A DNA stretch of 54,805 bases, filler included, from Asterionella formosa (taxonomy: Eukaryota), in the NCBI GenBank assembly GCA_002256025.1. It is 4 parts of 4 records of this genome, joined end to end, with 100 filler letters (N's around TTAATTAATTAA, not from the genome) between each part and the next. Parts side by side here need not be neighbours in the genome. Positions count along the whole stretch, not along the records: positions 41,185 to 54,805 come from NKIB01006565.1; 3 more parts are not named here. One strand, given 5' to 3'. Positions within the stretch are counted from its first letter, which is position 1. Every line of letters begins with the position of its first letter. Of this stretch, positions 41,085 through 54,805 are shown one piece after another. The notes beneath the pieces were generated by a model. The model did not search any database and was not told the origin of the DNA. It saw nothing but the letters and a program-made list of their open reading frames with translations. A program made the translations under genes and the position numbers.

Positions 41085-41184
41085 NNNNNNNNNNNNNNNN
41101 NNNNNNNNNNNNNNNNNNNNNNNNNNNNTTAATTAATTAANNNNNNNNNNNNNNNNNNNNNNNNNNNNNNNNNNNNNNNNNNNN
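41085..41184. other. Artificial scaffold linker
   Basis: 44 N + TTAATTAATTAA + 44 N. Confidence 0.97.
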
Positions 41185-41186
41185 GG

Positions 41187-42658
41187 GCGGGACCTCCACC
41201 AACACTACCTCAGCAGGGTTACGGAAATCAGGGTCAATCATATCATCAAGGTCCTCCTCCTCCGAGAGAGCCACCGCCTCCGCCCTTTCCAAGCCAACAA
41301 AATCAACAGCAGGGTTATCGTGAAGAACCAGCGGTGGATGACGAACCTGAATTCGACGAACCGTTTGCAGATCCGACAGCACGCCAGGGAGATTCACAAA
41401 TGGACATGTCGTCGTTTGATAAAGATTTAATTCTCAAAGGGCTAGCTAGATTGTATCGAAAAAAGATTCTTCCTCTGGAACTGAGTTCCAAATATGGCCA
41501 TTTTCACTCGCCACCGTTGAGCCCGTCAGATTTTGATGCTCCTCCCATGGTCATGCTACTCGGTCAATACAGTGTTGGAAAGACTTCGTTCATTAAGTAC
41601 TTGCTAGGCAAGGACTTCCCGGGGATCCGCATTGGTCCAGAACCAACGACAGATCGATTTACTGCTATTTTGTGGGGCCGTACTGACAAGGTGATTCCTG
41701 GAGCAGCGCTCTGTTCGCAAGCCCACCGACCCTTTGGAGGATTGAATCCCTTTGGGAACAATTTCTTGTCGAGAATGGAAGGAAGTGAAGTGGATGCCGC
41801 CATTTTGCTGAACATCACGCTTGTCGATACTCCTGGAATTTTGAGTGGACAAAAACAAAAGTCTCGAAACTATGATTACGAAGCCGTGATGAAGTGGTTT
41901 GCAGAACGAGCTGATTTGATTATTGTCATGTTTGATGCTCACAAGCTTGATATCTCGGTACGTTCTCCTTTATTGAAGAAGAATATAGAATTCAAAAGCT
42001 TTTCCATGTAATTCCTTCTTACTAACCTTGCCGAACAAAACAGGACGAACTTAAAGGAGTAATGGAAATGATGATTCCCCACTTGGACAAAGTGCGGGTT
42101 GTTTTGAACAAGGCGGATTCTATTTCCACTCAGCAACTTATGCGGGTTTATGGGGCCCTTATGTGGAGCCTCGGCAAGGTCATGAATACCCCCGAAGTTT
42201 GTCGAGTCTACATGGGCTCCTTCTGGGACGCCCCGCTTCAAAACCTCGAACAGGCTGAACTGCTGCAACGAGAAGAAATGGATCTGCTCCAGGATATTAT
42301 GAACCTCCCTCAACAAGCCGTGATGCGCAAGATCAACGAATTGGTGAAACGAGCCCGGAGTGTCAAGGTCCATGCCTACCTGATTCACTATCTGCGCAAG
42401 CAGCTCCCGTATACGTGGGGAAAACGAGACAAGCAAAAACGTTTGATTGGGCGGTTGGAGTCAGAAATGCTGGCAGCAGCAAGACGTTATGGACTTCCAA
42501 AGGGTGACTTTCCAGCGATTGGGCCGTTTCGACAGGCTTTAAATGAAATTAAGGACTTGTCTGAGTTCCCCAAGTTGGACAAGAAGCTTGTGCGTGAAAT
42601 GGACAAAGTCTTTTCTGTGGATATCCCCGAGTTATTGGAACGCGCTAGAAATACGTAA
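41187..42658 (+). CDS. EHD: EHD/RME-1 family dynamin-like ATPase, 5'-partial, 2 exons
   Basis: LGQYSVGKTSFI, IGPEPTTDRF, VDTPGILSG, FDAHKLDIS|DEL, LNKAD, QQLMRVYGALMWSLGKV. An 86-bp GT-AG intron lies at 41958-42043. The frame is open from the scaffold start with a Pro/Gln/Gly/Tyr-rich sequence. Confidence 0.95.
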
Positions 42659-42763
42659 CTCAATGAGATAGATGGGACGGGTTGAAATATTATCTTAATG
42701 CTTTGAAAGCTTGTCAACTGAATACAGTTATTATCTTTGTGTAGACTGCGTGAACCAGACTTT

Positions 42764-43289
42764 CTACGCTTCAGACGAGATGGATGCTACCTTCGTTCGT
42801 TTAGCAGCGAGAACAGGAGGCTCATCAGAAACAGTGTATTCTGCGGGCTTGACCATGGAATGTAGAGGATAATCAATGGGTGCTCTGAAAATGTCCGACA
42901 TTCTGCTTTTCTTGGGGCGTTTGTCCTGGGCCCACTTCGCAGCTTTCTTTTGCTTGTGTTTGGCGAAACACGAGCTGTGTACGTATACCAAGAGTAATGG
43001 GGTGGGAGAGTGTTAGAGACCAGGCGAGGTAGTAGATGGTTGTAAACCTCACTTTGTATGCCTCGACACAAATTCTACTTCATTGCAGTCCATGTCACAC
43101 ACTCGGCAGCGTTCTTTCTCCCTCATCCAGCTGATGCAACATCATGCAACACAAGACATGCATTCACCCAGCGTTCATTCTAAATTGCTAAACTCACATC
43201 TCAGTTCGAACTCCAAATAGCTGAGGAGCGAAAGCAGAGGCCGAAGCCACAAAAAGAGCGACAAGAACGACGGTATTTGACTTCATCAT
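42764..43289 (-). CDS. Plastid-targeted 100-aa basic protein resembling plastid-specific ribosomal protein PSRP6 (cL38), 2 exons
   Basis: Exon 1 (43289-43198) reads MMKSNTVVLVALFVASASAFAPQLFGVRTE, a signal peptide plus exact ASAFAP motif. A GTGAGT..CACAG intron spans 43197-42975. Exon 2 (42974-42764) reads ISCFAKHKQKKAAKWAQDKRPKKSRMSDIFRAPIDYP..KPAEYTV. The gene model is solid; the PSRP6 identity is recalled similarity. Confidence 0.75.
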
Positions 43290-43565
43290 GGTTAATACCT
43301 GTTGTAAGTCAAGTTCTTTGGTGACTGCAATGAATGTCAGTATGTAGGAACACGTATTCGGAAATGGAGCACATAAATATTACCGGATGAGGGGATGGGT
43401 GAATGTGAGGCAGCCACCCATTGCAATGACTTATTCGACTAAAATACGTACGTACACAGTCTTGCTCCGCCCTTTTTCTTTCATTCTTGTCCCATCATCA
43501 TATCATAGCCACATTTTTGGTATCAGGATACATCACACCCTTTATTACAAAGAACAGCTTTTGCG
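43290..43565. promoter_or_regulatory. Putative bidirectional promoter
   Basis: 276 bp between two divergent ATGs (43289 minus, 43566 plus). Confidence 0.55.
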
Positions 43566-45000
43566 ATGCGATTCACTCCATCTACTGTTGCCATTGCTCT
43601 GGCCGGAGTGAGCGCCATTGCTCTTTGCTCTCCAGTTTCTGGTAAGTACTGGGACATTGGTGGTAGACGAATTACAAATCGATCTTGCAGCGCGCTTCAA
43701 GTGGCTGCCTGCGGAAACTGATGTTTCGTTTGTTCTGTCAAAATTACCAAGTACTAACGTTTGAGATTCCCGATTCCCCTCCTCAGCGTTTGCTCCGAGC
43801 CGCACATTTGTCCGGTCCTCCACGAAAGTAGTTGAACAACAGCAGTCACACCAAGCAGGTTGCTCGTGCGTTGCTTGCGCTGGCCTTCACGCAGTAAGTA
43901 TCTGGTAATGAACCGGCATAATATATCGATATGAAGCCTCACGCGGAAACGTGTGAAATTTTCATTATTAGTTTTGAAAAGGGAACCATGATGGTCTAAC
44001 AACAGCATCTTTCTTCGCTGGATCACAGATTACTTGCCATTGCCCTTCATGCGCTCGGAGCGGATACACTCGTCTCTTCGCGGATGTCACTGCCGAATCT
44101 GAAGCCGTCGAAATCCCCGCCGAGGTGGAAGCCCTAGATGGCGTAGAATCCACCGACGAGGCCCACAACGTCGAACGACCTGCTCGTGCATCCCTGCAGA
44201 AGAAGCGAGTTGTGAAGGGAAAACCCCTCTCGGAATTCGCCGACGGCCAAGTCGTGAAGGCCACTGTCAGAACCATGACCACCTACGGAGCGTTCTGTGA
44301 TTTTGGAGCTGCCACTGACGGTCTCCTTCACATTTCAAGAATTTCCGACACCTTCGTCAAGGATGTCAAGGAAGTCCTCTCTCTCGGACAAGAAGTCGAA
44401 GTACGTATTGTATCAATCGACGCCGAAAAGGGACAAGTTGCACTTTCTTTGCTGACTGAAGCACAAGAATCTGCTGCCGGCGCTGCTCAAAAAGAACAGC
44501 AAAAGCAACCAAAGAAGACCGGTAACACCCCACGCGGAGGCGGGGGACAGAAGCGTGAAGACAGCGCCGTCTTGGATAAGCTAGTAGAACAGGGATGGGA
44601 CACCTCGAAAATGGTAGCTGGAGTAGTCGCAAGTACTCTTGCTTTTGGAGCATTCGTCAGAGTGGATGCTAGCCAATTGGGGGAAGGAATCGAAGGGTCT
44701 TTTGATGGTCTTGTTCACATCTCTGCCCTTACTGCAGGACGTGCGTCCTCAGTGACTGAATTCGCAAAGGTGGGTGACAATGTGCAAGTCCGTGTCAAGA
44801 GTATTGGAGAAGGCAAGGTATCCCTTAGTATGGTTTCGGAGGAGGACGAGAAGGCTGCTCGGCAGAATTCGCGTAAGTCGGATGATTCAGAAGTGGTTGT
44901 CGTAGGTGCCATCGACTGGAAGGAGCAGCTTGAGGCTCGTGCTGTGAATATGCCTGTTTTCTTCAATGGACCAGCAGAAGTGATTGATAAGCGCAAGTAA
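43566..45000 (+). CDS. Plastid-targeted protein with two S1 RNA-binding domains (PSRP7/PETs N-terminal-like), 3 exons, 384 aa
   Basis: Exons 43566-43641, 43787-43893 and 44029-45000, with GTAAGT..AG introns that keep the frame. Presequence MRFTPSTVAIALAGVSAIALCSPVSA-FAPSR. S1 domains YGAFCDFGAATDGLLHISRISDTFVKDV and FGAFVRVD..FDGLVHISAL. Confidence 0.85.
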
Positions 45001-45235
45001 AGAACTTATACCACTCAAGCAAAATTATTTTTCAAAACGTTATTGACACTTTGCTCTAGTGCCACTTGCTTCAATTGACAAAGTCTCAAAGCAAGTTAAC
45101 ATTGTAGAATGGTAAAATAAGGGAGGCACTTAAAATTAAAATATTGCGTTTTTCGATTCGAATGGGAAATGTGTCCATAAAGATGCACATTTGGCTGGGT
45201 ATTGAGAATGCTTTCGTCAATTAAATCGTTCCTTT

Positions 45236-48200
45236 CTAGTCATCAAGTATGATGGATTTGAAGAATTTCGCTTCTTCTTCATTGACTCGGATTTTCCCAT
45301 TGGTTTTCACCTCTTCGTTCAATCGACCGAATTCCCCAGTAATTCGAGAAAAAAGACCAGCAGGTGTAGCAGACCCCTCGCCATCATCGCCAATGTCTAG
45401 CCGCCCTGATAGAATATTACTCAAGGTAGGATACTTGAAAGATATTTCATTATTGTCTGAGAGAATTTGCTTGGCTGATAAATAATACAAAGAGGCATCA
45501 TTATACTTCTTCAAGTAAAACCGATGTAAATCGCCCACCGTCAATAATGCAAGAATGTAGTCAATACTATTCCTGTCCTTGTTGGCATCCTGAATTCGGA
45601 TATAGTCTGTCAAGGATTTGAGCGCAGCGTCGTATTCACCTAATTGGTACCTCAACATTCCAATGCTTCGATGTTCACGTGAACAATGAACGCTGTCCTT
45701 TCTATACGTCTGCAACTTGATGTTTAGAGCTTTTTTGTAGCAGTCTTTCGCGTCATCTAACCTTCCCAGGTCTTTATTGACATGACCAAGGGGAATGAGA
45801 ATATCACACAATCTCTCGTCAGTTTCTCCAAATTGAGTTAGGAGGATCTCCACACACTTTTCGTAGCAGCCAAGAGCATCGTCCGAGTCACCGGATTGTC
45901 GATAGACGTGTCCGATCTCTTTCATCGTTTCAACCGTGTAACTTTGATCAACCAGAGATTTACGAATATGCAAAGCGTCTAGGAGAAATGATATGGCTCT
46001 ATCAAATTCTCCTTTTTTTCGTGATAAGACCCCAAGGAAGTGGAAGGATTCCCCACAAAGTGGATTGTCCGTTCCAAGGCTGGCTTGCCGACATTCAAGG
46101 CCTTCTACAAAACATTCATAGGCCTTGTCGTACTTGCATTGTTTCATTTGTATCTTGCCCATAAACTCCAAGGTGGCAGCAATATCGGGATGAGGAAGCG
46201 GAAGATTCTGTCTCTGCCAATCGAGACACTCCCCAAACATTGCCAAAGCTTCGGTGTCTTCTCCCATTTCTGCTTTCAACTCGCCAATATTGAAAAGCAC
46301 ACTTGTAACTTTTTCACTGTCTTCGCCATACACTCGTTCCGAAAGCTCTAAAGCTTTATTGAAAAATTTGAGAGCGTCATCCTTTTCGCCCACTGATCTG
46401 TGGAGTTGACCAATCTTTTCAAGGGTCAAAATGACTGTTGGGCTTTCGCCAAGCTTTTTAATTCGGATAAGAAATGACTGTTCAAAGAACTTAAACGCTG
46501 GTTCCGTTTCATTAAGTTGTTGATGAAGGGTGCCCATATCGAAAAGGGCAGATGATCGTTCCAAAGAGTCTTCTTTTCGATCTTCGGTTTGTTTTAAACA
46601 ATCGTCGAATGCTGACAACGCTGCTGCAATATCGCCGTGGTCAATGAGAGTACGGGCGATGCATCTAAAATCGTATGCGGTCCTTTCCATCAATGTCCGC
46701 TTCACTTTTCGCATGGATTTGACCGCCAGATCGAATGATTCTTTGCATCCCTCGAAATCCCCATGTAAGGCGTCGGTCTTTCCATTTAGAATATGAATGT
46801 CGGTTGGATCCGCGTCACTTCGATGTTGCTCAAACATACGGTAAGCCTTGTCGAAATAATCGATCGCTTTGACTTTATCACCGCGCTCCACGCAAATATC
46901 ACCCATGAAACTGTAAATAGATGCAAGGTCACAACTGCTTTCGTCGATTTGAACTTTCCACTTCAAGCACTCGTTGAGGGCAATATAGGCATTATCGTGT
47001 TCACCCATGACATGATACAGGTGCCCCTTGCGACCAAGCGCAATACCGATCTCCACTCGATTGTTTGCAGAATCGTTGAACAGTCGATCCAACGCCAAGT
47101 CGTAAAATTCCATGGCTCCCCTATAGTCGCAATTTGTCATCAATGCGTCGCCTTGGATCATAAGGGCTTCTGCAAACAGAGCTCCTCGCTCATCACATTC
47201 TTTCGTTACCTTAAGGCATTCTTTGATGATTTTGAGCCCTTTATCGTGGTCATGTTTGGCAAGGTAAACTGTACTCAAACTATAAAGAATTTCTCCAGCG
47301 AGCGGGGAATTCTTGGGCGCAAGTTTGATGGCAGCTTTATAATGCGTAATAGCATCCGAATATTTGTTGTGGACAGATAAAGCAAATCCGATGGCATGCA
47401 GAGCCTTTGCAGCTTCGACAGCCGTATGTTGCTTTCTACACTGGGGTGCATTTTCCGCGATAAATAATGCCGTCTTGTTACAGATGGTGACCGCGACTTC
47501 GACTGGATCCGCGGTAATGGTTTCATCATCATCCATGGCAACTCGAAGTTTCTCGCAATCTCGAAGGTGAGTATCTGTTCCTTGGAACCAGCCCATATGA
47601 TCCAAACGCTCGATCAAAAAACGTTCATCGCGAAGCAAGACTGCTACCTTTTGATACATTTCTGCTTTCAGCATATGTTGAAGCAAATTTTCCAATGCAT
47701 AATTGCGGCATGCGTCTTCCACGCCATCACGATTGCTTTCGAATTTTTTTGCCAGATATCCTGAGGCAAAAGCATCGTGCCAGCGGCGAGCCGTCTCGGG
47801 CTGCGGAGAGCTGAATTGCATTTCACGCACCAGTGACAAGGCGAATTCGGCTTGCATTTCGTGATGGATTTCCACGTACGGTGTTCCTCCTTTTTCTACG
47901 ATAGACAAGAGACCCAACGACGTTAAAGCTTCGGAAATAAATCGGACACTTTTGCGCAGTTGATTTGTCGTCAAATTTTCGCCCAATTCATTGGTGGCGT
48001 CGCGCTCGGTTCGCAGCAACTGACCCCAAAGTAAATGAACAGCTTCCAAAGGCACTTCGTCAGGGAAAACTAAAGCCATGGAAGACAAGCACATCTTCAT
48101 CAAGTTAGTAGGTTGACCACCAGCAGCCAACACAGGACTTAACATTAAATTCATGACCTCGTTCAAGATACTGACCGGAAGAAGTTTCGACGACGAGCGC

Positions 48201-49798
48201 GAATGGCGAAGTTTAAGCAAGCAATTACTGAGTTCCTGGTTAAGTTCTTCCAACCCTTTGACGATACCAGCAGTTTCTTGCTTGAGGCGGAACCAACGAG
48301 CCACAGTTCGGATGGTGAGTGGATGGTAACCACAACGTTGAACGATAGTCTTGGTTTCCAAAGAAGTACGCAAAATGTGGGTAGCGGGATAATTTGCTTC
48401 GGTTAAAAATAATTCCAGAGCTTCTTCCTCCACCAATGGTTCTAATTCCAATGTCCATTCCACGTACAGGTTTGGAGATGACGTCGTCACCAACATGGAT
48501 TGGTCTTTAATGAACCAAAACCATTCAATTTCGTGATCGTCAAAAACATCATCCAGAACCAACAAGAGTGCCTTGCTCTTTTGTTGCAAAATTAAAGACA
48601 TATCGCGTTTGACTTGGAACATTTTTTCTTCTTCTTTCTTTTGCACGATTGCTTTCTCTTCCCGACTACGGAGTGGCAAAGGCCAGTCTGGCTTCACCCC
48701 AAGTTGTACACATAACGAATCCAAATATTTGACGTACTTCTGATAATTCATACCAGATCCCAAATCATGGTTGTACTTGCCAAGCCTTAACCACAAAACT
48801 GTAAAATTTGATTGTACTGAAGGATGAGACACGACCATCGCTGCTAGAGTCGTTTTCCCCCAGCCTTGGCCCTGCTGAGCCGCAGTCCTGGTGCAATCTT
48901 CGTGCGCTGATGAAATGGCTACTTTCACGTTCGGTGCATCGTTGAGTTTCGTCAAAATCCGATGAATACAATCGTGGCGAGGCAATGGAGTCGAACGAAT
49001 TTGATGGAAAATCGACTGTACCACAAGTGGAACTTCTGTGTCCGAGACCGAGTCATCGATAATCCCACAAGCTTCTCGCAAACCCTGTGAGTTGGGGACC
49101 CATTTCAACGACATGAGTACGTCGTAGGCTTCGAGACGGAATTCTTTCGGCGAACCAGTTCTTTTTGGACTCTTGTTAGCAGAGTGCCAGATGTCCTCAC
49201 ATTGATGCGAGAGTTTCCAGTGACCAGCATAGCTGGACAAAACCTCCATGAGCGTGACGTAACAGATCTCCGTTCCTTTATTGTTGTTGTCGACCGTCTC
49301 CACCATGAGTTCCAGAAGAACTTTGGACGTTTGCCATTTGGATTCATCCGAAAATTTCACTTGGGAAAAGAGCTTTTCCAAAGCAGGTGCATATTGCAGG
49401 TACACTTTGTGATGGTAAAGCGCCTTGATAAGACTATGAAAGGCTTCCAGCATGTCCTTCCGAGAGGCAACTTCCCTTTCTGCCCCTGCGTCGAGATTTT
49501 CGATATCGCGAATTGATATGGCTCCATTTGAACCAGAATCGTGCGACGATCGACGATTGTTGGCAGGCAAGGAGTCTGCGATTTGACATTCTTCTTCGTA
49601 AGCGTCTTGGACGTCGTTGGCAAGTTCGTCGAGTTCTTCGAGCCCGCTCATGTCTTGCTCGCTCGTCAATGATTTGCACCGTATTGGTATGATTGTGGAA
49701 GGAGAGTAGAATGTAAAGCACGAGTAATGAGAAAGGATAGACCAAGGGAGGCTGCCAATGTCAATTAGAAGCGGCGGCGATGTCGATTGTGAACCCAT
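45236..49798 (-). CDS. NLR-like STAND NTPase: NB-ARC, APAF-1-type helical domain and TPR array
   Basis: Walker A GQGWGKTT (~48849-48872), Walker B LLLVLDDV, RNBS-B-like MLVTTS, EEALELF, GLPL-like CGYHPLTI, MHD-like EIHHE and YALENLLQHML. Roughly 15 TPRs of ~42 aa follow. The start may be MSGLEEL at 49651. Confidence 0.85.
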   Translation of the reverse strand: MGSQSTSPPLLIDIGSLPWSILSHYSCFTFYSPSTIIPIRCKSLTSEQDMSGLEELDELANDVQDAYEEECQIADSLPANNRRSSHDSGSNGAISIRDIENLDAGAEREVASRKDMLEAFHSLIKALYHHKVYLQYAPALEKLFSQVKFSDESKWQTSKVLLELMVETVDNNNKGTEICYVTLMEVLSSYAGHWKLSHQCEDIWHSANKSPKRTGSPKEFRLEAYDVLMSLKWVPNSQGLREACGIIDDSVSDTEVPLVVQSIFHQIRSTPLPRHDCIHRILTKLNDAPNVKVAISSAHEDCTRTAAQQGQGWGKTTLAAMVVSHPSVQSNFTVLWLRLGKYNHDLGSGMNYQKYVKYLDSLCVQLGVKPDWPLPLRSREEKAIVQKKEEEKMFQVKRDMSLILQQKSKALLLVLDDVFDDHEIEWFWFIKDQSMLVTTSSPNLYVEWTLELEPLVEEEALELFLTEANYPATHILRTSLETKTIVQRCGYHPLTIRTVARWFRLKQETAGIVKGLEELNQELSNCLLKLRHSRSSSKLLPVSILNEVMNLMLSPVLAAGGQPTNLMKMCLSSMALVFPDEVPLEAVHLLWGQLLRTERDATNELGENLTTNQLRKSVRFISEALTSLGLLSIVEKGGTPYVEIHHEMQAEFALSLVREMQFSSPQPETARRWHDAFASGYLAKKFESNRDGVEDACRNYALENLLQHMLKAEMYQKVAVLLRDERFLIERLDHMGWFQGTDTHLRDCEKLRVAMDDDETITADPVEVAVTICNKTALFIAENAPQCRKQHTAVEAAKALHAIGFALSVHNKYSDAITHYKAAIKLAPKNSPLAGEILYSLSTVYLAKHDHDKGLKIIKECLKVTKECDERGALFAEALMIQGDALMTNCDYRGAMEFYDLALDRLFNDSANNRVEIGIALGRKGHLYHVMGEHDNAYIALNECLKWKVQIDESSCDLASIYSFMGDICVERGDKVKAIDYFDKAYRMFEQHRSDADPTDIHILNGKTDALHGDFEGCKESFDLAVKSMRKVKRTLMERTAYDFRCIARTLIDHGDIAAALSAFDDCLKQTEDRKEDSLERSSALFDMGTLHQQLNETEPAFKFFEQSFLIRIKKLGESPTVILTLEKIGQLHRSVGEKDDALKFFNKALELSERVYGEDSEKVTSVLFNIGELKAEMGEDTEALAMFGECLDWQRQNLPLPHPDIAATLEFMGKIQMKQCKYDKAYECFVEGLECRQASLGTDNPLCGESFHFLGVLSRKKGEFDRAISFLLDALHIRKSLVDQSYTVETMKEIGHVYRQSGDSDDALGCYEKCVEILLTQFGETDERLCDILIPLGHVNKDLGRLDDAKDCYKKALNIKLQTYRKDSVHCSREHRSIGMLRYQLGEYDAALKSLTDYIRIQDANKDRNSIDYILALLTVGDLHRFYLKKYNDASLYYLSAKQILSDNNEISFKYPTLSNILSGRLDIGDDGEGSATPAGLFSRITGEFGRLNEEVKTNGKIRVNEEEAKFFKSIILDD

Positions 49799-50279
49799 CT
49801 TTCCTCCATGATTAAGATAATAAATTTCATACTATAGAAGAATCAATTTATTAATACATACATAATTATATATATATGAAATTTATATATTCTATAATAT
49901 TTTTTACATCATTTAATATCATGATGTCGTTACCGGTAGTTCACTGTGGTGAATTCCAGGGGGGGCAGTACGACTAAGATAGGGACGGCATTGTATAAAA
50001 CAATAATATTGGAACTGTATATATGATACAGCGAAGAAAACAGCAAAGCCCTCATTAATGCCTGTACAAAGATGGTACCAGGTATTTGGTACCAGATACG
50101 TTAAATTAAATATACAGTTTTCCATACGTAAATATTCCGGAACGGTACTCCCTAACAGTTTACCGGTATGTGTTTATTCAACACATTCATACCGCCATAC
50201 AAACGATACATACTACAGTATTATTAGCATCAAAGCATAATGACACGCTATTTATAGTGTTAATTCACTTAGGATGCCG

Positions 50280-50351
50280 GACTGGATCGTATAGTGGTTA
50301 GTATAAAGCATTGTGGTTGCTTTGACCGGGGTTCGATTCCCCGTCCGGTCA
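50280..50351 (+). tRNA. tRNA-His (GUG)
   Basis: Acceptor stem GACTGGA/TCCGGTC, D-arm GTATAGTGGTTAGTAT, anticodon arm AAGCA-TTGTGGT-TGCTT, T-arm CGGGG-TTCGATT-CCCCG, discriminator A. Confidence 0.92.
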
Positions 50352-50872
50352 TCCGTCTTGCTAGGGATTTCTTTCTGTTTTATTGCTTTTCACTCTGGAG
50401 GCTTCTTATCATTCTGTCATCAGTCCCCATTGGACGTCATTGGTATATCATCTCTGGTTACTTACAAAAAATGATGGTTTGTATCATAACTTTGTGTAAC
50501 CAATAGGTTTTTAGACTGTATGACTTGTCTTATGGCTGTATCAATGATGATGCTGTCATTGATTGCTGTGTATCACATCCATTGTCACTGATAAAATAAC
50601 TGCAAACACACTAGCATCAATCCAATAATGCACAAACTAGTGGCTGCAAAAGGGTGTGCTAACCACTAAGTCATTCCCCTACTGTCATCATCTGTTTTAG
50701 CATCAACATCATGACTGTCATTGATAACAAATGGAGGCAACACATGAATGCCTGCATACAGCTTTTATCTTATTTTTTGATGCAGTTATTGAGCGATTCT
50801 GCCTTCAAAATAAAGGACCATTTTTGAGATTAAGTTACTGATATACCTGTGCTACAATTTCGGTAAGAAGTC

Positions 50873-51339
50873 NNNNNNNNNNNNNNNNNNNNNNNNNNNN
50901 NNNNNNNNNNNNNNNNNNNNNNNNNNNNNNNNNNNNNNNNNNNNNNNNNNNNNNNNNNNNNNNNNNNNNNNNNNNNNNNNNNNNNNNNNNNNNNNNNNNN
51001 NNNNNNNNNNNNNNNNNNNNNNNNNNNNNNNNNNNNNNNNNNNNNNNNNNNNNNNNNNNNNNNNNNNNNNNNNNNNNNNNNNNNNNNNNNNNNNNNNNNN
51101 NNNNNNNNNNNNNNNNNNNNNNNNNNNNNNNNNNNNNNNNNNNNNNNNNNNNNNNNNNNNNNNNNNNNNNNNNNNNNNNNNNNNNNNNNNNNNNNNNNNN
51201 NNNNNNNNNNNNNNNNNNNNNNNNNNNNNNNNNNNNNNNNNNNNNNNNNNNNNNNNNNNNNNNNNNNNNNNNNNNNNNNNNNNNNNNNNNNNNNNNNNNN
51301 NNNNNNNNNNNNNNNNNNNNNNNNNNNNNNNNNNNNNNN
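50873..51339. other. Intra-scaffold assembly gap
   Basis: Run of N without the linker motif. Confidence 0.95.
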
Positions 51340-51980
51340 GATTGGGGGAATGAGTTTCACCTCAAAATAGTCCAAATTTAGTTCAAGGGGAAAACATTTT
51401 GAAAATGATCATACCATGAATGGAATCAACAAGATAGCTGGCACTGTCTGAGTTGGCCAGCATATCAATTTAGGTATGATTGGGTCAGCAGGCATGAATA
51501 TCTAGGATGTCCAAATTGTTGTGTTGGCAAATTTACTGCAACTTGCTGGAAGTGGTGATGCACAAAGAAAATACGCAAGCTATAGCTACATAACAGCAAT
51601 CGCAGTGTTGCTAGCTTTGGGCATGGTCTGTGCATACTAGTACATACTTCGACTTCGAATTCAACTGAGTGATGATGAGAGTTGAATTCTTTATCAATAG
51701 ATGATGTGCAATAGATACCGTTACATTACGCATGCCGGTACATACGGTACGTTCCTTGTACTCCGTATTTTTATTTTCGCTTATTGTATACGGTTTATAT
51801 GGTCCTGGGTATACGACCGGTAGCTGTAATATCCGGGTCTTTCGAGGAATAATTTCAAAAGTCGCTGAGCACGATCGATGCAGGCAGATCTTCCTTCAAC
51901 AAAATGGACCAAGCAAGTGATGAGACTGGTAATGGCGGGTGTTTGCGATTTCTGGATATATCTGATGCGCTAGCGGGTCT

Positions 51981-53762
51981 ATGAAGTGTACCACAAAGAA
52001 GATGATTCGACGATCTGGTGGAAGAATCAGCAACCGAACGATCGGTATATATCTAGTTATTTTGGCAATCGTCCTTCAGCTACAGCTCGGTGTCGCGTTG
52101 AGTACAGGACAACCTTTGAAACAGGCGGCTCGACTGTCAGCATCACATCTACAATCAAGATGGAGACGAGGGGAGATCTATCCCGAAGATGATGACATCG
52201 AAAAGGAGAAACAGGCCGAGCGCCCCACTTTGACTGAAACGGAAACGCGCGGACCAACTGCCGCTCCAGGCGAGCCGAAAATTGTGGTTCTTGGAGCATC
52301 GGGCAAGATTGGTCGTTTGGTAGTCCAACAGCTCATGGAAATCCCAAGCTTAGATGCTACGATTGTTGCATTTGTCCGAGACTATGACAAGGCCTGCCGA
52401 GTCTTTTACGAGGAGGTCCTAGTCCCTCGTACTCAATCCAGACGAGGGCCTAAGTTACAGATTGTGGTGGGAAACCTAGTGCCGCCAGAAGATTTGCCTG
52501 GATATGTCGACAAAGAGGAGGCCTTATGGGAAAGTAAAGCAGAATCTGCCTCCAGATTTTACAACAACAAAAAACACGACTATGATAACCGCGAACTATT
52601 ACCAGATATTAACGAGTCATTGGAAGAAGCCATAAAGGGGTGTACCACGATCATTAGTTGTGTGGGAGCAGTCCGACCTACGAATCTTTGGTCCGACTAC
52701 ATCAAGTTTCCTATCTGGAGGTTGTTTCAAAAGGATGTGAGCAGCTGGTGTCGTGATGAGCGTCATCCTTACTATGTGCACTATGTTAGTACCAGAAAGG
52801 TTTTGGGGTTTGCCGAAAGCGAGCAACGACGACGGGAAGCTGCCATAGAGGAAGAGGACGACAGCCATAAGGATCACGTGATGAAAGACCGAATACGTTT
52901 CATACGGATATCTGACCTTTGCCTTTCGAAGCGGCCCTGGAGTTTTGTTCCGGTGGTGACGAATGTTGTACAATCAATGGTCTTTCGATACCAGGACATG
53001 GCGGAACGCTTGCTCGACGAAAGTACGGAAATCGATACAATCAACGTACGACCAGGTGATTTGACAGACGAAGAACGGGTAAGTGTCAAGTGTGATTTTA
53101 TACATGTTTACTCCTCTCTCATATGCTAGTTTCGTATCTGACGCTTCAACTTTCAGGATGTCAATACAACCAGTTTACAAGTTGATCCAAGTGGAAAGCT
53201 TCCTTATCCAGCCATGGTCAGTCGGGAAGATGTGGCTTCGCTGGCAGTGACAAGTGCATTGTTCAGTGCATCTACCATGACAAATTCGAAAGAAGCGCAT
53301 AAGGTTTCTCCATTCCACATGACACTGGCCGTACGATGGGTTGGTGAGTGTGCAGAGCATCAGCCTAGTCAAGGTGAAAAAAATGACGGAGCTAAGGACG
53401 CAGAAAAGTGTATGGAAAAAATTTTGAAGGGCAATCGAAAGTCTACAAAACGAAGTCGACGACGACGCCTTAAGACAATGCAGGCGTATCATCCAGCATT
53501 GGTTCGATTTATGGAGAAACGAAGGAGGAATCTTAAGCCGTATGCAATCTTCGTGGCTTTCCCGGTCTATTTGATGTTGTGCTTGGCTTTCACTACTATT
53601 CTGCAGCATTTGCCACTGCATCGAATCACAGGCTACGAACGAGCATCTGAAATGGTGAAAAAGCTGCATCATGCATTGCTAACAACCATTTTGTCGACGA
53701 TGCCTCAGATTCAACAGTGGTTCAATTCGCTTAGTCGACAAAAGTCCTACATTTCATTCTAG
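51981..53762 (+). CDS. Atypical SDR / NAD(P)H-binding Rossmann protein (Tic62/NmrA-like) with signal peptide and C-terminal TM helix, 2 exons
   Basis: IVVLGASGKIGRLVV, AFVRD, AIKGCTTIISCVG, NVRPGDLTD and MVSREDVA. A 78-bp GT-AG intron at 53079-53156 joins the two ORFs in frame. Hydrophobic segments IGIYLVILAIVLQL and YAIFVAFPVYLMLCLAF. Confidence 0.85.
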
Positions 53763-53864
53763 AGACACAGCGGACTCTTTTCACCCTTATAGGGATCATA
53801 TGTTGTAGTCAAGCAATTTATCTACAAGCAATGTTTACGTCTCTATAACTATGTACCCATGTCA

Positions 53865-54273
53865 TTACCGGCCTGCTGCTCCCATAGTCTGTTGCAACTG
53901 CTGCTGCTGCTGCTGAATTTGAGCTTCATTCGCCGTCTGCAGGACAAGTCCCACCTTTTCTTGGGCCTCCAAGTATTTGGAAACACAGCGATCGGTACAG
54001 CTCATCTCGCCCAATTGAAGGTCTTGATCTTTATGCTTCCTAGCAGCACACTTAGTGAAGCAGGTTCGAGCAATTTTATTGAATAGATCAGTGTACATTT
54101 CCATCTCAGTCGTCGCTGTGAGAGTGGTATATTAAGCAATCTAGCGATGAATGACATACCGATAGGCAGAACAGACGTGGGCGCATCAGAGAAAAAAGTC
54201 AAATTAACTTACCAGCGAACAAAGGATCTGGGCCTTCAGGCTGTTGCTTTCCTCCTCCTCCGAAAAAGCTCAT
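53865..54273 (-). CDS. TIM10: Mitochondrial small Tim chaperone TIM10, 2 exons, 103 aa
   Basis: Exon 1 (54273-54213) [24 protein letters not shown] intron 54212-54116; exon 2 has [12 protein letters not shown] and twin CX3C motifs ([18 protein letters not shown]). Confidence 0.92.
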
Positions 54274-54642
54274 CGTTACGTGTGTTGAGTGGTATGGGAA
54301 GGAAGGATATTATGAAACTGTTGACGGCGTCAGCTAAGCTAAAAGAGATTGTGACGAACAATTGGGGTCAACGGGGGACAGCAGGGGCAGGCGGCACTAG
54401 CGCAAGGAAAATGCGTACCAAGTAAATTGATCCATCCAGAAATGCAGGATGGGACAGATGTGGGGCCTCTGCCAACACGCAATCTCTCCCTACTAAATCG
54501 AAGACGCCGTTTACGGCACTTTTTCGAATTTATGTCTAAAGTGACGTATTTATGCTACTTTTGGGGGAATTTATTAGGGTAAAACCAAAATTATTATGTG
54601 TTCTAAAACAAAATTTACTTTACTTATCGGGTTCTTTCCGGC

Positions 54643-54805
54643 TCATTAGGCTGATTTCAGTCTCTCTTTGAGGCTCAATTTGAAAACCTTATTGTTACTT
54701 TCCTCGAACTTTTGATACATCCTTAAATAGTACATTTTCTCCTGTATACAAGGGCTATACATGTTCAAGATAAAGAATTGAAAATTGAACTACTAATGTT
54801 TAGTC
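54643..54805 (+). repeat. Second copy of the terminus of the piggyBac-like element
   Basis: Colinear match to 1511-1670 (TCATTAGGCTGA.TTCAGTCTCTCTTTGAGGCTCAA..TTGTTACTTTCCT..AAGGGCTATA..TTGAACTACT). Runs off the end of the window. Confidence 0.85.

Follow-up and report, generated by a model that had tools for sequence, protein, structure and literature searches.

We analyzed a pair of spliced genes lying head to head in a 54,805-nt stretch of DNA (referred to below as the window) from the diatom Asterionella formosa (GCA_002256025.1). The window consists of four record parts joined by 100-N fillers; its positions 41,185 to 54,805 come from NKIB01006565.1, and all coordinates given here count along the whole window. 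The minus-strand gene encodes a putative plastid ribosomal protein of the cL38/PSRP6 family, and the plus-strand gene encodes a predicted plastid protein with two S1 domains. RNA evidence was taken from Logan contigs of four runs (X1, X6, X7, and X8) from four studies, which comprise metatranscriptomes of lakes and fresh waters and a transcriptome labelled "algae metagenome." The ends of these contigs mark transcript ends only approximately, a contig spanning several genes does not prove a single transcript, and contig depths, which cannot rank genes, were not used for any ranking of expression.

Two reading frames on opposite strands, each of them interrupted, were identified from the sequence and from stop-to-stop open reading frames (ORFs). 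The minus gene starts with an ATG at 43289 to 43287 and stops at 42766 to 42764, and its 100-residue product is exactly the database protein P0001. The plus gene extends from an ATG at 43566 to a stop codon at 44998 to 45000, and its joined product of 384 residues agrees with the database protein P0005 at every residue. RNA contigs covered both genes in three of the four runs. Both plus-gene introns (GT..AG) appeared as joints in all four runs, and the single minus-gene intron appeared as a joint in X1, X6, and X7 (annotated as "skips 223"); the minus gene was without RNA cover in X8, which says nothing about its being silent. Past the stop codon of the plus gene, RNA contigs continued without a further splice joint to at least 45100. 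At the cL38-like gene, a 60-letter contig over the splice joint had a depth of 3996.7 in X1, the exon 2 contig had one of 244.5 in that run, and a depth of 124.4 was recorded in X6; for the S1-gene contigs the depths were 1020.8 and 172.1. Again, these values were not ranked. An earlier sequence-only reading of this DNA had proposed two spliced head-to-head genes with ATGs 276 bp apart; the coordinates were right, and the RNA joints confirm the introns. The features of the locus are listed in Table 1.

Table 1. Features of the cL38-like/tandem-S1 locus and of its two neighbors in the window
Feature	Position	Strand	Description and evidence
cL38/PSRP6-like gene, exon 2	42764..42974	-	Codes ...SCFAKHKQKK...SSEA plus stop; holds the entire conserved cL38 core; PF17257, spinach alignment, joint 42974/43198
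cL38-like gene, intron	42975..43197	-	GTGAGT..ACACAG; donor at 43197, acceptor end 42975; RNA joint
cL38-like gene, exon 1	43198..43289	-	Signal peptide MMKSNTVVLVALFVASASA/FAPQLFGVRTE; frame opens MMKSNTVVLVALFVASASAFAPQLFGVRTE
Divergent spacer, putative shared promoter region	43290..43565	.	276 bp, ATG to ATG; RNA contigs
ACGT-core element TACGTACGTAC	43445..43455	.	Place matching CTGACGTAC of other spacers
Tandem-S1 gene, exon 1	43566..43641	+	Signal peptide MRFTPSTVAIALAGVSAIALCSPVS(A); RNA
Tandem-S1 gene, intron 1	43642..43786	+	GTAAGT..CCTCAG; joint in 4/4 runs
Tandem-S1 gene, exon 2	43787..43893	+	Opens AFAPSRTF...; FAP motif, transit-peptide-like stretch, first HxxxCxCxxC (43849-43878)
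Tandem-S1 gene, intron 2	43894..44028	+	GTAAGT..TCACAG; interrupts second HxxxCxCxxC (43888..44052); joint in 4/4 runs
Tandem-S1 gene, exon 3, N-terminal part	44029..	+	Acidic linker, EAHNVERPAR motif (44158-44187)
Tandem-S1 gene, exon 3, S1 part	to 45000	+	S1-1 (~44236-44451), basic linker, S1-2 (~44608-44832), conserved C-terminal tail
EHD-type dynamin-like GTPase gene	41133-42655	+	Convergent with the cL38 gene, ~105 bp between stops; Pfam EHD_N, Dynamin_N, DUF5600
NB-ARC + multi-TPR gene	45239-49831	-	1531-residue open frame; convergent with the S1 gene

Behind a hydrophobic N terminus, both proteins carry a junction that we read from the sequence by eye, ...FVASASA/FAPQ in the minus protein and ...CSPVSA/FAPS in the plus protein (the slash marks the junction). 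The signal peptide plus SA-FAP presequences that had been proposed for both genes were thus found again, as ASA/FAP and VSA/FAP, respectively. An A/F junction behind a signal peptide is described as the motif of diatom plastid pre-proteins (PMC4329603), and both proteins are predicted to be located in the plastid.

A middle exon of the minus gene (43130 to 43053, containing CRVCDMDC) was modelled at first and was rejected, since the RNA joints skip it in three runs. This 78-nt stretch of the intron (43053 to 43130, minus strand) is flanked by AG and GT, preserves the frame, and would code for WMREKERCRVCDMDCNEVEFVSRHT. Its RNA cover is limited to two unspliced contigs of low depth, so that it represents either a pseudo-exon or an alternative exon that is rarely used.

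We then compared the minus protein with known families. Exon 2 alone (69 residues) matched the Pfam family PF17257 (DUF5323) with an E value of 1.8e-4 and 21.8 bits, and an NCBIfam scan of the same exon yielded no match. In the alignment with spinach cL38, query residues 7 to 48 read RPKKSRMSDIFRAPIDYP...KPAEYTV against RPKKTARWDIKRGPAVYP...LPAEWTI, and the core RPKK..SDI.R.P..Y...KPAEYT pairs with spinach RPKKTARWDIKRGPAVYP..PAEWT. Past the FAP motif the protein has 81 residues, 16 of which are K or R versus 8 that are D or E. A word-based homologue search returned four relatives, one of them with a precomputed PF17257 match. The window exon and three relatives were combined into a profile (A1) that was scored against 1.84 billion representatives, yielding 163 relatives at E <= 1e-3, including 63 at E <= 1e-10. 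A second profile (A2) comprised 150 sequences, namely, the window exon, two of the earlier relatives, and 147 of the 150 A1 matches listed. Among these aligned relatives, 138 of the 150 matched PF17257 at E <= 0.01 (best, 2.8e-12), and four positions (K10, R19, P20, and K22) are invariant in the alignment. When A2 was searched against the PDB at E <= 1, three chains were obtained, all of which are cL38/PSRP6 (spinach, 1.6e-11 and 1.5e-9; Chlamydomonas, 2.4e-8). Because the A2 alignment may already include green-lineage proteins, a search was added with a profile (A4) of the 29 closest, diatom-type sequences only, and at E <= 1 it matched the same three cL38 chains alone (8.1e-4, 4.6e-3, and 0.01). 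These data support the minus gene as a genuine member of the cL38/PSRP6 family, and the resemblance to PSRP6 noted in the sequence-only reading is borne out both by the PF17257 family profiles and by PDB matches that are confined to cL38 chains. The N termini of the relatives are of two sorts, either a signal peptide with an F motif or an ordinary transit-peptide-like sequence, and the occurrence of both sorts fits an early origin of the protein.

The reference chains of the family (PF17257) are chain h of 5H1S and chain Af of 6ERI from spinach and chain 0 of 9TVU/28JW from Chlamydomonas. The A. formosa protein resembles them in being small and basic, in sharing the core K..K......RPKK.R.SD..R.P..Y....P.EYT, and in having a nuclear gene with a plastid presequence. 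It differs in that this presequence is bipartite (signal peptide plus ASA/FAP), for a plastid with four membranes, and in that diatom-type members start the core with FAKH..DKAAKWA; the position of the protein on the diatom ribosome would follow from homology. As described in a 2026 preprint, cL38 has a known location in spinach, Sinapis, and Chlamydomonas, in the 23S/5S cleft by bL21c, and is the sole chloroplast-specific ribosomal protein common to all plants and algae examined (10.64898/2026.07.03.736309). The text of that preprint does not contain the words diatom, Rhodophyt-, Ochrophyt-, or Stramenopil-, and its figures or supplements may name the algae that were examined (10.64898/2026.07.03.736309).

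For the plus protein, two stretches matched Pfam PF00575 (E = 1e-18). The best NCBIfam models were GSP13 (NF005973; 127 bits, cutoff 148) and CvfD/Ygs/GSP13 (NF040579; 120.1 bits, cutoff 117), with each score being a sum over the two S1 domains. Homologues were abundant, with 5820 at E <= 1e-3 among 7999 scored candidates, and those orthologues in the top 120 that carry a name all come from pennate diatoms (Amphiprora, Synedra, Pseudo-nitzschia, Seminavis, Amphora, and Epithemia). Their labels differ by source and include "elongation factor Ts," "predicted RNA-binding protein with RPS1 domain," and "30S ribosomal protein S1." In a protein atlas, the nearest clusters consisted of haptophyte and chlorophyte S1 proteins of the stand-alone type; at 0.87 to 0.88 they fall under the 0.9 level and serve as leads only.

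An alignment of 53 orthologues of the tandem-S1 protein (A3) revealed, on the N-terminal side, a conserved HxxxCxCxxC repeat block, LFADV, and EVPAEVEAMDGVES.EEAHN.ERPAR, followed by S1-1, a basic linker with RRDDSAV, an S1-2 that carries a 9-residue insertion, and the tail GAKDWKE...MP.F.N.P..VD.RK.; the plus protein ends 55 residues beyond S1-2. The number of CxCxxC copies varies among the 57 orthologues with a full N terminus, being zero in 3, one in 17, two in 24, three in 12, and four in 1, and the last copy is nearly invariant. Beyond the EAHN motif, CxCxxC was found only once in 120 proteins, and among the cL38-like proteins it was present in 2 of 151. The HxxxCxCxxC repeats may form metal-binding knuckles; as judged by title and abstract, no publication on a CxCxxC motif of plastid proteins was found.

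To place the gene pair in other diatoms, metagenome contigs were scanned with A3. This yielded 80 loci, mostly on cDNA-like contigs of 1.1 to 1.8 kb, all of which were translated in six frames and searched with a hidden Markov model (HMM) of the cL38 family. In L008, L012, L014, L016, and L030, a cL38-like ORF was detected that runs opposite to the S1 gene and lies upstream of it (E, 4e-34 to 7e-30), and the HMM gave no other match anywhere in the 80 loci. Thirteen loci have at least 1.5 kb of sequence upstream of the S1 match; four of them were positive, and the other nine (L047, L052, L063, L064, L066, L070, L072, L077, and L079) were negative. L030 was positive with 0.8 kb upstream and L050 was negative with 1.3 kb, while L019 and L026, with ~0.5 kb, were left out of the linkage count. 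In the five positive loci both first exons were found, signal peptides and A-F motifs were present in all partner genes, and the ATG-to-ATG gaps are 459, 440, 562, 391, and 204 bp. Recurrence in five independent contigs with the same presequence types indicates that the arrangement is beyond chance.

A maximum-likelihood tree (IQ-TREE) was then built from 31 S1 proteins, comprising 21 ORF pieces from the window and the loci, nine database proteins, and a long-branched Triparma model, with a midpoint root that serves for drawing only. A split with 100/100 support separated the six syntenic rows and every named pennate from the nine nonsyntenic rows and Triparma. The syntenic rows are scattered over the pennate side, some with Seminavis, some with Pseudo-nitzschia, and the window near Synedra, and the divergent cL38/S1 pair is thus probably ancestral to the clade of named pennates. 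Synteny of the pair across diatoms, which the sequence-only reading had named as a check, holds for five contigs in the named-pennate clade and fails for nine contigs of the other clade. Near Synedra, a long stem of 0.86 changes per column leads to the window S1 protein, P0006, and P0007, which points to fast evolution of the S1 protein in the lineage of the window.

The spacer between the two genes was examined next. The RNA 5' end of the minus gene lies at ~43295 and that of the plus gene at 43515 (X7) or 43528 (X8), so that the two ends are at most ~220 bp apart with no gene between them, which is inside the <1-kb limit used for bidirectional promoters. A 9-mer, CTGACGTAC (either strand), is exactly present in five of the six syntenic spacers, and in none of 200 first-order Markov resamples did a 9-mer occur in at least five spacers. 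In those five loci (2.6 to 11 kb each) it is found once per locus and always in the spacer, 58 to 221 bp from the minus ATG and 138 to 334 bp from the plus ATG. At the corresponding place, the window has TACGTACGTAC (Table 1), and over its full 54.8 kb it contains ACGTACGT a single time. The TGACGT hexamer is described as the "aureo box," whose ACGT core is bound by diatom aureochrome bZIP factors (PMC4937327). CTGACGTAC contains TGACGT, and the window has NNACGT twice; the canonical TGACGT is missing at the window locus. The close RNA 5' ends, the conserved ACGT element, and the linkage in pennates give structural support to a shared bidirectional promoter region.

Taken together, the above results point, with a probability of about 70%, to a compact freshwater pennate-type diatom locus in which divergent cL38/PSRP6 and tandem-S1 (not PSRP7) genes share a clade-conserved ACGT spacer. 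Several observations weigh against this reading. The window cL38-like protein is divergent, and on its own its 21.8 bits fall under the PF17257 gathering score of 25; as a single sequence it matched the spinach cL38 chains only at E values of 0.08 to 0.13. Since these single-sequence scores are weak, the cL38 assignment rests on the family profiles. In X1, the deepest run, one 6282-nt RNA contig extends over cL38 exon 1, the full spacer, and the S1 gene in its spliced form, reaching beyond 45100; it may represent overlapping or read-through transcripts or an assembly over adjacent genes, and in either case it blurs the positions of transcript starts. The window lacks the exact 9-mer, with TACGTACGTAC keeping the ACGT core and showing two mismatches to CTGACGTAC. 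Moreover, in L063 and L072, in which cL38 is not adjacent, exact CTGACGTAC precedes the first exon of the S1 gene by ~150 bp, and L070 has TGACGTACGT upstream of its S1 gene. The element thus belongs at least to the S1 promoter and may serve the S1 gene only, whereas a role in driving cL38 as well would be a further step. Of the single bidirectional promoter claimed in the sequence-only reading, the structural part has stood (5' ends ~220 bp apart, the ACGT element, and linkage). The divergent partner of the S1 gene is a thioredoxin-like protein with WCGSC in L072 (3566-4174, minus strand) and a low-complexity protein in L063 (2837-4000, minus strand).

A further point against our reading comes from the neighboring genes. 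The EHD-type GTPase gene is co-linear upstream of cL38 in L008, L012, L014, and L016 (75 to 87% identity), while the fifth syntenic contig, L030, stops inside the cL38-like ORF and cannot show this gene. Since an unrelated gene is linked too, the conserved adjacency may be ordinary microsynteny, in which two genes of a gene-dense genome have been inherited side by side and are independently regulated from their own core promoters, without functional meaning. The density of the genome, with window neighbors 100 to 240 bp apart tail to tail, fits this explanation, as do the 9-mer at S1 genes without adjacent cL38 and the absence of the pair from all nine testable contigs of the other clade. However, the pair has been kept throughout the named-pennate clade while the downstream neighbor changes: only L014 and L030 have a weak counterpart of the NB-ARC/TPR gene (~28% identity) in this position, and a different gene lies downstream of S1 in L008 and L012. 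The spacers have also stayed short (204 to 562 bp), each with one central conserved 9-mer. We regard adjacency without functional meaning as possible but rather doubtful. In the window, the EHD ORF contains an N run near 41139 to 41186 (16 X in the translation).

The sequence-only reading had taken the plus gene for PSRP7. On this alternative, the gene would encode the PSRP7 (cS25) of diatoms, present in stoichiometric amounts in the plastid 30S subunit, and the two genes would form a coregulated module of plastid-specific ribosome components. PSRP7 is the N-terminal product of Chlamydomonas PETs (S1-S1-EF-Ts) and, as described, derives from a polyprotein with EF-Ts (PMC13684679, PMC13481248). 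It shares with the plus protein two N-terminal S1 domains and, as predicted for the latter, a plastid location, and the gene is linked across pennates to what is probably a true plastid ribosomal protein gene. In the PDB, the diatom profile scored 85.3 bits against the whole PSRP-7 chain 28jw_w, above the ~60 bits of the best single bS1 domain listed, and the JGI label "elongation factor Ts" on several orthologues is the label of the PSRP7-EF-Ts polyprotein. The match, however, is confined to one stretch of the 560-residue chain (profile positions 116 to 230 to chain residues 51 to 167), and Chlamydomonas bS1c (85.8 bits) and GSP13 (82 bits) score equally. S1-2 with the tail alone reached PSRP-7 only at an E value of 0.026, and then at the first S1 domain of PSRP-7, such that S1-2 shows no specific likeness. 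Residues 166 to 375 and 399 to 560 of PSRP7, which are described as interwoven, in the arm and beak of the small subunit, with a uS3c insertion (PMC13684679), are unmatched in the 384-residue diatom protein, which has no counterpart of these uS3c-binding and beak-binding regions and carries extra HxxxCxCxxC repeats. According to these two 2026 papers, full-length PSRP7 homologues and the arm are found in Chlorophyceae only and not in the chlororibosomes of flowering plants (PMC13684679, PMC13481248). Pfam gave no match to an EF-Ts domain in the plus protein, and a search for longer homologues of the S1+EF-Ts form brought up bacterial bS1 together with a few algal models that are probably mis-fused, none with an EF-Ts Pfam domain, although this search is weak evidence. 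Of the features of PSRP7, the two S1 domains are present, whereas the anchoring regions, the EF-Ts polyprotein, and a specific S1-to-S1 likeness are missing. An identity as PSRP7 is thus unlikely, and this part of the sequence-only reading was given up; the plus gene product is best named a predicted plastid tandem-S1 RNA-binding protein, PSRP7-like in its S1 domains alone.

That the plus gene is a plastid orthologue of bacterial bS1 can practically be dismissed, even though bS1 chains come first in the PDB by summed score and the Seminavis orthologue bears the automatic NCBI name "30S Ribosomal protein S1," since the protein has only two S1 domains where three or more are expected, the rpsA models of NCBIfam all scored far under their cutoffs (PRK07400, 70 versus 460 bits; TIGR00717, 75 versus 577 bits), bS1 chains top the PDB lists because several bS1 domains all match the same S1-1, and a separate multi-S1 ORF exists in a related contig (L063 6591-8393). 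In the nonpennate clade, a second S1-domain gene adjoins the tandem-S1 gene in L063 (6591-8393, minus strand) and in L047 (3334-4257, plus strand); the one in L063 shows four or more S1 matches and is a candidate for the plastid bS1.

Two further kinds of S1 protein were compared with the tandem-S1 protein. SRRP1 (At3g23700) of Arabidopsis is described as a chloroplast protein that has two S1 domains, acts on plastid RNA, and functions as an RNA chaperone (PMC7352785). In architecture, the feature compared here, the two are alike as stand-alone chloroplast proteins with two S1 domains. SRRP1 is not known to have Cys-rich repeats. The bacterial post-transcriptional regulators of the GSP13/CvfD/YabR type provided the best NCBIfam matches and, in the PDB, 62 and 82 bits for 2K4K; they have one S1 domain in ~113 to 130 residues, whereas the diatom protein is eukaryotic, predicted to be plastid targeted, and equipped with two domains.

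Based on these comparisons, a working model can be proposed. Both pre-proteins would enter the endoplasmic reticulum by their signal peptides, after which the exposed phenylalanine and the transit-peptide-like stretch would direct them to the stroma. Removal of the signal peptide and a short transit peptide would leave the minus protein as a small basic protein of ~70 to 80 residues, which by homology would join the 50S subunit of the plastid ribosome, in the cleft between 23S and 5S rRNA beside bL21c. The S1 protein most likely binds single-stranded plastid RNA (mRNA or rRNA precursors) via its two OB folds, perhaps aided by the Cys/His repeats. This binding would be transient, would take place at the 30S subunit or close to it, and would serve the handling of mRNA or rRNA; in general type, the protein resembles the PSRP7/PETs N terminus, SRRP1, and GSP13. 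A bZIP factor at the ACGT element (aureo-box-like, TGACGT) probably sets the transcription of the S1 gene and possibly that of both genes. The plastid localization, the ribosomal position, the RNA targets, the bZIP binding, and the coregulation are inferred.

A bolder version would make the tandem-S1 protein of pennates, whose HxxxCxCxxC repeats resemble zinc knuckles and vary in number, the red-lineage functional counterpart of PSRP7, an accessory RNA recruiter of the plastid 30S subunit that has been kept together with cL38 under one light- or clock-driven aureo-box bidirectional promoter throughout pennate history. If this were true, accessory proteins of both subunits of the plastid ribosome would be dosed together by a bZIP photoreceptor/transcription factor. 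We consider this version quite improbable.

Part of what is described here was already known, in that Pfam recognizes many relatives of the minus protein, and automatic annotation regularly gives the S1 protein a name, though a wrong one. Our literature searches found no published account of diatom PSRP6 or PSRP7 homologues or of the PSRPs of diatom plastid ribosomes. New are the presence of cL38 in a lineage with a secondary red-type plastid, the pennate-old divergent cL38/S1 pair with its conserved TGACGT-type element, and the HxxxCxCxxC module of variable copy number ahead of the S1 domains.

The pair exists and is conserved among pennates, but in biological terms it is fairly ordinary; current views are not overturned by the locus. 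The range of cL38 now reaches a diatom with a secondary red-type plastid. For the two-S1 plastid proteins of diatoms, the labels PSRP7, EF-Ts, and bS1 should be avoided; these names or equivalent ones have been used in automatic annotation of the orthologues or in the sequence-only reading. Finally, the short spacer (204 to 562 bp across the positive loci) with its one ACGT/TGACGT element offers a small natural test case for how plastid-translation genes of diatoms are expressed in both directions, possibly under light control.

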